From Novosphingobium sp. (GTDB taxonomy: Bacteria; Pseudomonadota; Alphaproteobacteria; Sphingomonadales; Sphingomonadaceae), in contig NZ_JAUYNB010000031.1 of assembly GCF_030699305.1 (NCBI RefSeq), forward strand, positions 6,492 to 70,491: DNA of 64,000 nt, read 5' to 3'. The notes under the pieces were generated by a model that worked only from the letters and a program-made list of their open reading frames with translations, had not been told where the DNA came from and ran no database searches. The translations under genes and the position numbers were made by a program. This document shows positions 57,352 through 60,120 of the stretch, piece by piece (position 1 is the stretch's first letter; each line of letters opens with the position of its first letter).

Positions 57352-59504
57352 ACCCGATATCCGAAGCCGACGCCGCCAACGAGTTGATGCGGCTGGCGCG
57401 CCAGATCGCGCGGCATAACAAGCTGTATCATGCCGAGGATTCGCCGGAGATTTCCGACGCGGACTATGACGCGCTGGTGCGGCGTAATGCGGAACTGGAA
57501 GCGGCCTATCCGCACCTGATCCGCCCTGATTCGCCCAGCCGTCAGGTCGGGCATGAAGTCGCTGCATCGCCGCTGTCGAAAGTCACCCATGAAGTGCGGA
57601 TGATGAGCCTCGACAACGCGTTCTCGGACGAGGACGTGGCCGAATTCGTCGCGCGGGTGCGGCGGTTCCTGGCGCTGCCGGAGAACGCCGAAGTGGCGAT
57701 GACGGCGGAGGACAAGATCGACGGGCTGTCGTGCTCCTTGCGCTATGAAAAGGGCCTGCTGGTCCGCGCGGCGACGCGCGGGGACGGGCAGGTGGGTGAG
57801 GACGTGACGCCCAATGTCGCGACCATTGCCGACATTCCGCAAATCCTGCGCGGCAACGTGCCGGACGTGTTCGAAATTCGCGGCGAAGTGTTCATGAGCA
57901 AGGCCGATTTCGCCGCGCTCAACGCCGCGCAGGCAGAAAAGGGCGACAAGGTCTTCGCCAACCCGCGCAACGCCGCCGCTGGATCGTTGCGGCAAAAGGA
58001 CGCCAGCGTCACCGCCAGCCGCCCCTTGCGGTTCTGGGCGCACGGCTGGGGCGCGGCGAGCGCGGTTCCGGGGGCGACCCAGCTGGAGGTGATGCAGGCG
58101 ATTGCCGCTTGGGGGCTGCCGGTATCCCCGCTGCTGGTGCGCTGCGCCGATACCGCGGCGATGCTGGACCACTACCGCCGGATCGAGCGGGAGCGGGCGG
58201 AGCTGCCCTATGACATCGACGGGGTGGTCTATAAGGTCGATCGGCTCGACTGGCAGGAGCGGCTGGGTTTTGTCGCCAAGGCGCCGCGCTGGGGCATGGC
58301 GCACAAGTTTCCCGCCGAACGCGCCGAAACCACGCTGGAAGCCATCGACATTCAGGTTGGCCGCACTGGCAAGCTGACACCCGTAGGGCGGCTCACCCCG
58401 GTAACGGTGGGGGGCGTGGTCGTCTCCAACGTCACGCTCCACAACCGCGACGAAATCGCGCGGCTGGGGGTGCGGATCGGCGACCGGGTGGTGATCCAGC
58501 GCGCGGGCGATGTGATTCCGCAAGTGGTCGAAAACCTGACCCGCGACGAACCGCGCGCGCCCTTTGCCTTTCCCGATCATTGCCCGCAGTGCGACAGCGA
58601 AGCGGTGGCTGAGGAAGGCGAGGTCGATGTGCGCTGCACCGGCGGGCTGGTCTGCCCGGCGCAGCGGACCGAGCGGCTGAAGCACTTCGTCAGCCGGGGT
58701 GCGCTCGATATCGAGGGGCTGGGCGAGAGAAAAATTCGGGATTTTCTCGCAAAGGATTGGATTAAAAATCCAGCAGATATCTTCCGATTGAAGAAATATA
58801 AGAACGAGATGGCTGGCCCAAAGGGTAAGCGCCTCAAATCTACGGAGAAGTTACTCGCTTCGATTGAAGCAAAGCGAACGCCAGACTCAGTTAGATTTCT
58901 CATAGCTCTTGGAATTCCAGAAATCGGAGAAGTCACGGCTCGCGAGCTAATGAAGGGCGTTCGGGATTTGAGGGTTTTACCCAAATTGGCGAACGAAATA
59001 TATTTGTTGCGCCAATATGCGAAGCAAGAGGTCGAGGAAAGCAAGGCGTCTTTCAACGCGAGAATGATTGAATCAGTGCGGAAAATATTAGCGGTCAATT
59101 CCCAGGGTATCGGAACTTCTGCCGCTTTTGCGCTTGCAGACTTTTTCCATGAAACACACAATTGCGAAGTGTGGACTGACCTGCTTAACGAGGTTGACCC
59201 GCAAGATTTCGAAATTGAAGTTGTCCTGAGTGAAGTGACAAGCAAAACCATTGTTTTCACAGGCACATTAGCTACGATGGGGCGTGACGAAGCAAAGGCC
59301 TTGGCGGAAAAATTAGGCGCGCGTGTGGCTGCGTCAATCAGCCGCAGCACCGACATCCTGGTTGTTGGAGAGGGTGGCGGGTCAAAGCGTAAGAAAGCCT
59401 TGGAATTAGGAATTAAAGTGATGACTGAGCAGGAATGGCTTCAAGTCACTGGCCGAGTAGAAAAACTTGGGGATACGCATGACCAAGGACAACTCTTTTT
59501 TTAA
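57348..59504 (+). CDS. ligA: NAD-dependent DNA ligase; 3' third of atypical composition
   Basis: [21 protein letters not shown], Zn finger C..C..C..C, HhH, BRCT TIVFTG...GEGGGSK. Confidence 0.96.
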
Positions 59505-60120
59505 CAAGGTCTCAAACGACCGCATTTCCGCGCGTCAAATGGACGAGATGATCGGCTTGGCTCGTGGTTTATGTGCAGACGGAACATTGAATCAGAGTGA
59601 AGTTGAGTTCCTTCAAGGATGGTTAGCAGCAAGTCTTTCGGTAAGTGATCAACCTCTACTCCAGACTCTGTGGGTGCGGGTGAACGCAGTCCTGAAGGAT
59701 GGAGTGATGGATCAAGACGAGCACGCCGATCTGTTCGAGACCTTGCAGAATCTTGGCGGAAGCGAAATTGAGCTAGGTGAAGCGCTGAAATCGACAACTT
59801 TGCCGCTTTGCAGTCCAGCTCCCTCAGTCACTTTTGAGGGCCAACAGTTTGTCTTCACAGGAACATTTTCCTATGGCCAAAGGAAAGATTGCGAACGTGC
59901 CGTGCTTGAACGAAACGGTGAAATCGGTTCCCTAACTCGCAAGACAGATTATCTGGTTATCGGGAGTTATGCGACTGACTCATGGAAACATTCTTCAATG
60001 GGTGCCAAAATTTTGAGGGCTTGTGAACTCCGCCAAGGGGGAGCCCCAATCTCGATTGTCTCCGAAGCGCACTGGTGTCAGTTCCTGTAGGTTATCGACT
60101 TAATGCCGAGGTGATTTAAT
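58728..60120 (+). other. Low-GC cassette: replacement ligA 3' end plus BRCT gene
   Basis: Hand count 77/180 GC (43%) at 58741-58920 versus 45/60 (75%) at 58621-58680; A/T-ending codons persist to ~60120. Confidence 0.85.
59479..60090 (+). CDS. BRCT-domain protein with TerB-like helical N-terminus
   Basis: [19 protein letters not shown]; FVFTGTF...CERAV...[10 protein letters not shown]...GAKI BRCT; overlaps the ligA stop by 26 nt. Confidence 0.8.

Follow-up and report, generated by a model that had tools for sequence, protein, structure and literature searches.

A foreign ligA tail and a small BRCT-domain gene form one cassette in a Novosphingobium genome

The DNA considered here, called the window, is a stretch of 64,000 nucleotides (nt) from a Novosphingobium sp. 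(contig NZ_JAUYNB010000031.1), and its source is a groundwater metagenome. Our subject is a small gene in it, here named X, and the 3' third of ligA, the gene for NAD-dependent DNA ligase, which precedes it. The neighbours of gene X are recN, a DUF559 gene and ligA on one side and cinA on the other. The features of the locus are listed below, where GC3 stands for G+C content (GC) at third codon positions, HhH for helix-hairpin-helix, and L102 for the Novosphingobium arvoryzae locus used for comparison.

57348-59504, forward strand: ligA, NAD-dependent DNA ligase gene, product of 718 residues.
57348-58726, forward strand: native part of ligA, encoding the Ia, adenylation, OB and Zn-finger domains (Pfam) and running to the DIEGLGE codons; GC3 0.83.
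58706-58729, forward strand: left recombination junction, within the conserved GATATCGAGGGGCTGGGCGAG (DIEGLGE); GATATCGAGGGGCTGGGCGAG ends at 58726.
58727-59504, forward strand: foreign ligA tail, low in GC, GC3 0.49, encoding the HhH region and a BRCT domain (Pfam HHH_2, BRCT).
59479-60090, forward strand: gene X, with an ATG start and 203 codons for residues; a helical domain with a double DG-x5-E motif, followed by a BRCT domain.
60091-60121, forward strand: spacer of 31 nt that ends the foreign block, AT-rich, with a GAGGTG Shine-Dalgarno-like motif for cinA; the right junction lies inside it.
60122-60625, forward strand: native cinA (Pfam CinA), 87% nt identity to cinA of L102.

Because ligA ends at 59504 and gene X begins at 59479, the two genes overlap by 26 nt, and a GGGGA Shine-Dalgarno-like motif lies 6-11 nt 5' of the ATG of X. 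The GC drops from ~0.67 to 0.46-0.51 across ~58727 to ~60100 and is ~0.7 again in cinA. In GC3 gene X (0.50) resembles the ligA tail and not the N-terminal part of ligA. An initial annotation of this DNA had placed the start of the gene 26 nt inside ligA, had described it as sharing a low-GC style with the end of ligA and had regarded that end as replaced, and in these points it was correct: X and the foreign tail make up one foreign block. That X is a genuine gene is borne out by its conservation: homologues of X number 1094 proteins at E<=1e-3, the top ones being 71-73% identical (E 1e-93 to 1e-95) and most ~60%, and an alignment of 22 diverse members of the family has 58 invariant columns.

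The limits of the block are seen by comparison with close relatives. The LigA N-terminal parts nearest to that of the window (94-96% identity) belong to N. arvoryzae and ~20 metagenomic relatives, whose LigA has 680 residues as against 718 in the window. In N. arvoryzae the site is empty: the order is recN-ligA-cinA with a gap of 4 nt between ligA and cinA, the ligA tail is native and high in GC, and X is missing. Up to 58726 the window ligA has ~91% nt identity to that of N. arvoryzae, and beyond this point the identity collapses. When compared with L102 and with L103, the locus of a close relative (94% LigA N-part identity), 28-30 of 30 nt are identical up to 58719 and 14-19 of 30 thereafter. 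The GC3 change-point of the gene falls at codon 467, where IEGLGE is followed by RKIRDF. On the other side, identity to L102 is back at 60123, the second base of the GTG start codon of cinA. The junction identities thus indicate that a 1.4-kb block, consisting of the ligA tail, X and the 31-nt spacer, replaced a native tail of ~600 nt. It encodes the last ~260 residues of LigA together with gene X, and the 16-residue C-terminal extension of the foreign LigA tail is encoded over the start of X. No remnant of the native ligA 3' end is found after X in the window. The segment 58727-60121 is a foreign cassette made of a replacement ligA 3' third and a translationally coupled X.

Since the window comes from a metagenome, a chimeric assembly that joined a low-GC fragment into ligA has to be considered as a source of this arrangement. 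However, a single contig of run X1 at 69x covers 58000-60800 and shows no difference, and a second, independent sample (X2) has separate contigs over 58517-59037, with the left junction, and over 59605-60378, with the right one, both at 100% identity. Moreover, ligA remains in frame, and the same ligA-X architecture is found in Qipengyuania sp. ASV99 (L062), whose assembly carries a strain label, and in many further assemblies. An assembly chimera is excluded, and we attach a negligible probability to artefact in general.

A scan for promoters and terminators around X in the window gave none above chance. Because none stands out, X would lie inside a ligA-X-cinA transcription unit. There are no att-like repeats flanking the window block beyond chance, nor is an integrase or other element gene found near it: the block consists of the ligA tail and X only. 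The repeats D5/I4, which touch the left junction, were considered as att-like and rejected, as they match a conserved cinA motif (RGEKIAV) by chance.

The protein encoded by X has two domains:

59479-59760, forward strand: N-domain of X, residues 1-94, a four-helix bundle with ADGxLxxxE (residues 33-41) and DGxxxxxE (residues 74-81).
59830-60087, forward strand: BRCT domain of X, residues 118-203, of the RFC1/LigA class, with a family-specific YATxSWKHS insert.

In the AlphaFold2 (AF2) model the N-domain consists of helices 3-31, 39-53, 59-71 and 79-93 (domain model pLDDT, the predicted local distance difference test, 86; pTM, the predicted template-modelling score, 0.74), and a disordered linker connects it to the BRCT domain. 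The motif A33-D34-G35-x-L37-x3-E41 is accompanied by a second copy, D74-G75-x5-E81, and D34, G35, E41, D74, G75 and E81 are all invariant across the family. The N-domain is present in 2734 cluster representatives (clusters at 50%). The helical N-terminus of the initial annotation is therefore recovered in the model. Its description as TerB-like stands for the motif and does not stand for the fold. TerB (PF05099) gave no match at E<=1 in a Pfam scan of X, a Foldseek search with the N-domain model against PDB returned a best E of 2.0 and listed no TerB entry, and hhalign of the N-domain with SngA of Shango aligned 17 columns around the motif with a probability of 11%. Membership of X in TerB, without support from Pfam and Foldseek and with the hhalign match confined to the 17-residue motif, is unproven.

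The C-terminal BRCT domain, also claimed in that annotation, is well supported. Although the Pfam BRCT model (PF00533) reaches only 18.4 bits (E 0.0025), under its gathering cut-off of 21.3 bits, X matches the BRCT region of NCBIfam PRK06195 at E 4e-11 and the RFC1 BRCT in a PDB profile search at E 4e-4. In Foldseek the BRCT model, with strands 123-127, 158-161 and 192-195 and helices 135-144, 173-186 and 196-202 (AF2), has a probability of 1.0 to the BRCTs of RFC1 and LigA and a template-modelling score of 0.56 (target-normalised) against RFC1 2ebu/2k7f. T127, G128 and R135 of X align with the TG and the R (R(DEAK)) of the RFC1 BRCT and K177 with the lysine of the LigA GSK; all four are invariant in the family. 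In work of Kobayashi et al. on RFC1, the T-G, Arg and Lys residues reportedly hold the 5'-phosphate of DNA. The family-specific insert, YATxSWKHSxxG, precedes the last BRCT helix.

Since LigA of the window has a BRCT of its own at residues 633-699 (Pfam E 2e-13), two BRCT domains do occur in tandem genes, as the initial annotation had it. The two are homologous (E 2e-5, 32% identity over 82 residues). The idea that X is a duplicate of the LigA tail was rejected: the BRCT alone aligns, and a longer match of the tail to the phage protein family phrog_3989 was not reproduced. Protein X, in sum, is a four-helix domain joined to an RFC1/LigA-class BRCT, and its family is large, strongly conserved and not confined to ligA loci. 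Many of its ~200-residue members are labelled 'NAD-dependent DNA ligase' or 'DNA ligase' in databases (JGI/NCBI sources), and one phage copy is labelled 'DNA polymerase'; these wrong labels are due to the BRCT match and call for caution in annotation.

The swapped tail itself looks ordinary. A 27-residue insertion in the HhH region sets the cassette tails apart from native Novosphingobium LigA, and for this reason a tail specific to X was considered. It was rejected, as the same insertion is standard in LigA of Erythrobacter, Qipengyuania, Sphingopyxis, Sphingomonas and Sphingobium. The best database matches of the window tail are all sphingomonad LigA, at 50-59% identity. Given these two findings, the tail is best described from its sequence as a divergent, AT-shifted tail of the sphingomonad type and not as a novelty adapted to X. 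In the alignment all the invariant residues of the HhH and BRCT domains are kept, so the chimeric ligase is presumably functional.

The window ligA gene is altered at both ends. In N. arvoryzae (L102:4340-8043) recN shares 4 nt with ligA; the DUF559 gene and repeats that lie between them in the window (56752-57351) are therefore an insertion. The palindromic repeat that brackets the DUF559 gene (56828-56893 and 57256-57340) is also found in L103, where copies of it lie in frame within the ligA tail (L103:7635-7793) and the resulting LigA has 727 residues. A few of the ~20 relatives have a LigA of ~727 residues; the extra length is a repeat insertion in L103, and several other variants of 726-727 residues probably share an insertion of this type. 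On the far side of cinA, a GT2 glycosyltransferase gene separates cinA from a TPR/beta-barrel gene in N. arvoryzae (L102:8675-10114, as against window 60625-60622); the window and L103 lack this glycosyltransferase gene.

The pairing of X with ligA is not peculiar to the window. In a scan that took one genome per species, 80 loci, nearly all of them in Alphaproteobacteria, encode X relatives. Co-occurrence with variant ligA tails, a check that the initial annotation had proposed, is indeed seen: X is linked to ligA at 15 loci, 13 of them co-directional and two convergent, and most have a foreign ligA tail. At the co-directional loci (L008, L021, L046, L057, L058, L062, L072, L073, L077, L001, L104, L105 and the window) ligA lies directly upstream of X on the same strand, the distance from stop to start being -16 to +26 nt. 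The two Rhizobiales loci, L056 and L067, have X convergent with ligA, and the 3' third of ligA is low in GC in L067 as well. In most of the ligA-linked loci the GC3 of the tail matches that of X and not that of the LigA N-part. The ligA of L072 is a mosaic, its N-part being 83% identical to L058 and its tail 74% identical to L046. In the Allosphingosinicella metagenome-assembled genomes of L046 and L077 (~4800-7606 in each) the whole ligA is a low-GC xenolog with X next to it; the LigA N-parts of these two are 55-58% identical to those of other sphingomonads and 72% to each other.

The ends of the foreign DNA vary on the left and are uniform in placement on the right. With the HFVSR motif of LigA as reference, the GC3 change-point lies 15-16 codons after the motif in the window and L021, and elsewhere 37, 49, 92 or 214 codons after it or 90, 34 or 13 codons before it; L008 has no change-point, and in L046 and L077 the whole gene is foreign. 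On the right, the foreign DNA ends 0-35 nt past the stop codon of X. High-GC remnants of the native ligA 3' end follow X in four loci, of ~13 codons in L001, ~22 in L072, ~30 in L077 and ~50 in L104. The variable left ends, the illegitimate-looking right ends and the deletion of native sequence together argue for recombination anchored in ligA, homologous or homology-facilitated illegitimate, and against site-specific integration. That the window cassette arrived by such recombination is largely shown, and similar events would have been repeated in many lineages.

The native remnants are, on the other hand, what would be expected if the block were a vestige, the left end of an island that an integrase had inserted in the 3' part of ligA, in the manner of e14 and phage 21 at icd, and the rest of which was deleted. 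The replacement tail leaves ligA intact, as such an island would, and X homologues do occur next to int in prophages. However, no integrase, att repeat or other element gene is found in the 13 co-directional loci or near the window block. A site-specific system would give one left breakpoint, but the breakpoints vary by lineage, from the whole gene to the last ~50 codons, and the remnants are far shorter than the segment replaced. We regard an island origin as very improbable.

Does X belong to the ligase tail? The initial annotation had proposed that X is the cognate partner of the swapped tail. As a dedicated partner (a decoy, guard or adaptor) of variant LigA tails, X would form with them two co-adapted BRCT proteins that might, for example, sense or resist phage factors directed at the ligase. 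Part of this proposal stood up. The pairing is recurrent, with tight translational coupling in the 13 co-directional loci, a convergent orientation in Rhizobiales and a low-GC tail in L067. The distances among tails and those among X proteins co-vary (Mantel r=0.39, p=0.003), which is not so for the LigA N-part and X (r=-0.09). The two LigA proteins whose tails are nearest to that of the window in a database search (58% and 57%) each have an X homologue next to them. The ligA-linked X sequences are long-branched and stand at the base of the alphaproteobacterial tree when it is rooted with phage sequences, and the homology of the two BRCT domains is likewise in keeping with a partnership.

Other findings speak against a dedicated partner. 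At 69 of the 80 scanned genomic loci (~86%) X does not adjoin ligA, and ligA is not beside X in any of the phage loci; nor did tblastn find ligA-tail remnants beside X at the non-ligA loci. X stands beside a native tail in L008 and a nearly native one in L105. The X of the window is closest to that of L001 (71%), but the tails of these two are only 44% identical. The tails have no X-specific feature. The variation of the crossover points is better fitted by recombinational hitch-hiking than by a co-adapted pair. A dedicated partnership therefore appears unlikely to us. The place of X next to ligA seems mainly to reflect its travel and expression, a functional tie to ligation being possible, and X is probably mobile, a gene for defence or for a DNA-end adaptor, and not a partner dedicated to that ligase tail.

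Away from ligA, several contexts of X are of the kind found in phage defence. In six loci of Caulobacteraceae (L006, L025, L027, L037, L041 and L045) X directly follows sngA-sngB-sngC of Shango, which PADLOC recognises with E-values of 2e-72, 4e-171 and 5e-229 for SngA, SngB and SngC; in the window no SngABC is found beside X. In three Caulobacter loci X directly follows a helicase-nuclease of ~2030 residues of the Hhe/PDC-S37 type. Fusions point the same way. In P0495 (2042 residues) the N-domain and BRCT are fused to the C-terminus of an Hhe-like superfamily 1 helicase with an MTES_1575 nuclease and DUF3320, and in P0478 (471 residues) to a DnaQ-like RNase_T exonuclease. P0377 (396 residues) has an extra N-terminal BRCT in front of the N-domain and BRCT module, and N-domain proteins of ~1060 and 842 residues have no Pfam matches. 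An SNase-domain gene lies beside X in ~13 Mesorhizobium loci (e.g., L003:7171-8606), and in Sulfurimonas phage SNW-1, a phage of Campylobacterota, an X homologue directly precedes a thermonuclease gene (L107:2465-3522). X and the SNase or thermonuclease may form a two-gene module of sensor and nuclease.

In Sphingomonas and relatives X occupies short islets of low GC close to the uvrA 3' end (L024, L033, L039, L048, L054, L069, L070 and L079; also L010:7826-9546 and L029:7653-9328). In two of the uvrA islets X is accompanied by a PDC-M41A/B pair (DUF5131) or by a retron RT-Toprim I-C, which is split in L010, and the uvrA 3' flank in these bacteria is a small integration hotspot. A swapped uvrA 3' end, by analogy with ligA, was looked for and rejected: uvrA is native in GC and X lies in a separate islet. 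In Parvularculaceae X lies between pyrB and plsY-dprA-topA.

These last neighbours raise the alternative that X is a housekeeping type of DNA-repair accessory, patchy in distribution and unrelated to conflict with phages, that for example brings ligase or excision-repair enzymes to nicks or modulates them there. The presence of ligA, uvrA and dprA/topA among the neighbours is consistent with such a role, as are an RFC1/LigA-class BRCT whose conserved residues align with the phosphate-binding ones of RFC1 and an X tree that is roughly congruent with host families. Against it, the copies near uvrA lie in low-GC islets outside repair operons, with uvrA itself untouched, and share them with retron and PDC genes. 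X is also directly linked or fused to Shango and Hhe, keeps its place behind cI or beside int across unrelated temperate phages, and is absent from the closest relatives of the window organism. These observations disagree with a housekeeping role, which we consider improbable.

The phage slot deserves description. X homologues occur in 17 temperate phages, at 28-45% identity. In Pseudomonas phage phi1, Stutzerimonas phage PG1 and Vibrio phage K139 the homologue lies directly downstream of cI, the order in K139 being cI-orf2-glo-int, under an annotated PL promoter. At the IMG/VR locus L100 it follows a repressor of the S24-peptidase type, and it is near int in phages Lodos and D14L. The PHROG family phrog_3989, whose function is unknown, is matched by X at E 2e-55, the alignment covering positions 103-292 of the 296 in its profile.

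Taken together, the findings make it rather probable, in our judgement, that a foreign cassette of ligA tail and X was acquired by ligA-anchored recombination and that X is a mobile adaptor for DNA ends, drawn from the pool of defence genes. The cassette entered by recombination anchored in ligA, with the left crossover in the conserved DIEGLGE codons and the right join where cinA begins, 31 nt past the stop codon of X. The native ligA tail was lost in the exchange and ligA kept intact, with no integrase or att site involved. In the window, X would have no promoter of its own and would be expressed with ligA by coupling. The protein would recognise DNA ends or nicks as an adaptor that works with neighbouring DNA enzymes, a role suggested by Shango, Hhe, SNase, the DnaQ-like exonuclease and LigA as neighbours or fusion partners and by the cI/int slot in phages. 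X itself may be drawn from a mobile pool of genes for phage defence or superinfection exclusion. Seen in this way, X is an accessory gene of defence islands or lysogeny operons that is carried by core-gene-anchored recombination, a variant of kinds already known.

Several points weigh against this interpretation. X is assigned to defence by the company it keeps: a catalytic domain is lacking, and housekeeping genes (ligA, uvrA, pyrB-plsY-dprA-topA) are among its neighbours. A search of the literature on BRCT with anti-phage, prophage, Shango and TerB, and on K139 orf2, found nothing on the X family. There is also the question of age. The X tree largely follows host families, and the GC of X is 5-15 points under that of its flanks even where it is apparently long resident, so that low GC alone cannot date its arrival. 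Part of the ligA linkage may thus be old and vertical, and the basal position of the ligA-linked X sequences could mean that the linkage is ancestral and functional. The cassette donor is unsampled, the best match of the tail being 58% and that of X 73%, and there is no explanation of why the foreign DNA always stops just past X.

A bolder form of the adaptor idea, which we hold to be doubtful, joins it to the ligase. X would be a plug-in sensor of DNA ends or nicks for many enzymes (ligase, SNase, DnaQ-like exonuclease, Hhe helicase-nuclease and Shango), to which it is attached by fusion or as a neighbouring gene, and in sphingomonads it would pair functionally with the co-transferred ligase tail, the ligase being an effector or target in a switch for phage exclusion. 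If this is true, the pair might, for example, control whether nicks or cohesive ends are sealed in phage DNA that enters the cell. It would spread by overwriting the resident ligase tail through recombination, and a host could therefore be rid of it only by exchanging a part of an essential gene.

Whichever way the function of X is settled, its family, with more than 1000 members at 90% clustering and the N-domain in ~2700 clusters at 50%, offers a candidate for phage exclusion or the sensing of DNA ends that can be put to the test. Independent signals from context agree on this: the cI slot in unrelated temperate phages, the Shango, Hhe, retron and SNase neighbourhoods, and the fusions. The locus is also a clear example from nature of an essential gene, ligA, in which the third that encodes HhH and BRCT has been repeatedly overwritten by divergent alleles with a passenger gene and without an integrase. 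The example is of interest for the use that accessory genes make of conserved core genes, which can serve them both as homology arms and as platforms for expression.

Several known systems resemble the cassette or X in some features and differ in others. The replacement of the icd 3' end by e14 or phage 21 in E. coli, where the element brings a surrogate 3' end, is similar in that the surrogate tail keeps ligA intact and that a native 3' remnant lies past the cargo in L001, L072, L077 and L104. However, at ligA there is neither integrase nor att site, the breakpoints on the left are not constant, X is the sole cargo, and the native tail is mostly or wholly deleted and not displaced. As for X, the BRCTs of RFC1 p140 and LigA, which bind 5'-phosphorylated DNA ends, are its best matches in structure and profile, but X is joined to a helical domain in place of a clamp-loader or ligase core and has the YATxSWKHSxxG insert. 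The exclusion genes of lambda, rexAB, are located after cI. The phage homologues of X occupy the same slot as these and glo of K139, directly downstream of cI in the PL or lysogenic operon, whereas the window copy is chromosomal and driven by ligA. The family phrog_3989 has the N-domain and BRCT in common with X and includes K139 orf2, annotated as 'BRCT domain-containing protein', to which X is 28% identical by tblastn, as against 41-45% to the Pseudomonas and Stutzerimonas phage proteins. The K139 protein has 301 residues, and members of ~290-305 residues carry two copies of the N-domain where X has one. X lacks the first copy and aligns with no more than the final two thirds of the profile. 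Another difference is that the genes in phages lie after cI or next to int and not after ligA.

Among defence models, the PADLOC candidate PDC-S48 (PDLC05027, 411 residues) has a C-terminal module of N-domain and BRCT in common with X. Residues 61-171 of X match its positions 269-385 at E 5e-7, and relatives of X match up to E 1e-16. The match of X is partial and weak because the first ~220 positions of the model are lacking in X, and PDC-S48 is itself only a candidate. GAPS2 (GapS2), by comparison, is a single-protein anti-phage system from Vibrio GMT islands that has been validated in E. coli (bioRxiv 10.1101/2023.03.28.534373). Its size is near that of X (189 positions in NCBIfam NF047932) and its C-terminal ~65 positions look BRCT-like, to judge from the LigA BRCT of the window, which matches positions 122-188 of the model at E 1e-6. 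X has no match to NF047932 at E<=1, and the N-terminal parts of the two are unrelated as far as compared. Even so, GAPS2 may be taken as the nearest validated architectural precedent for X, a small protein with a BRCT-like end that provides defence on its own.

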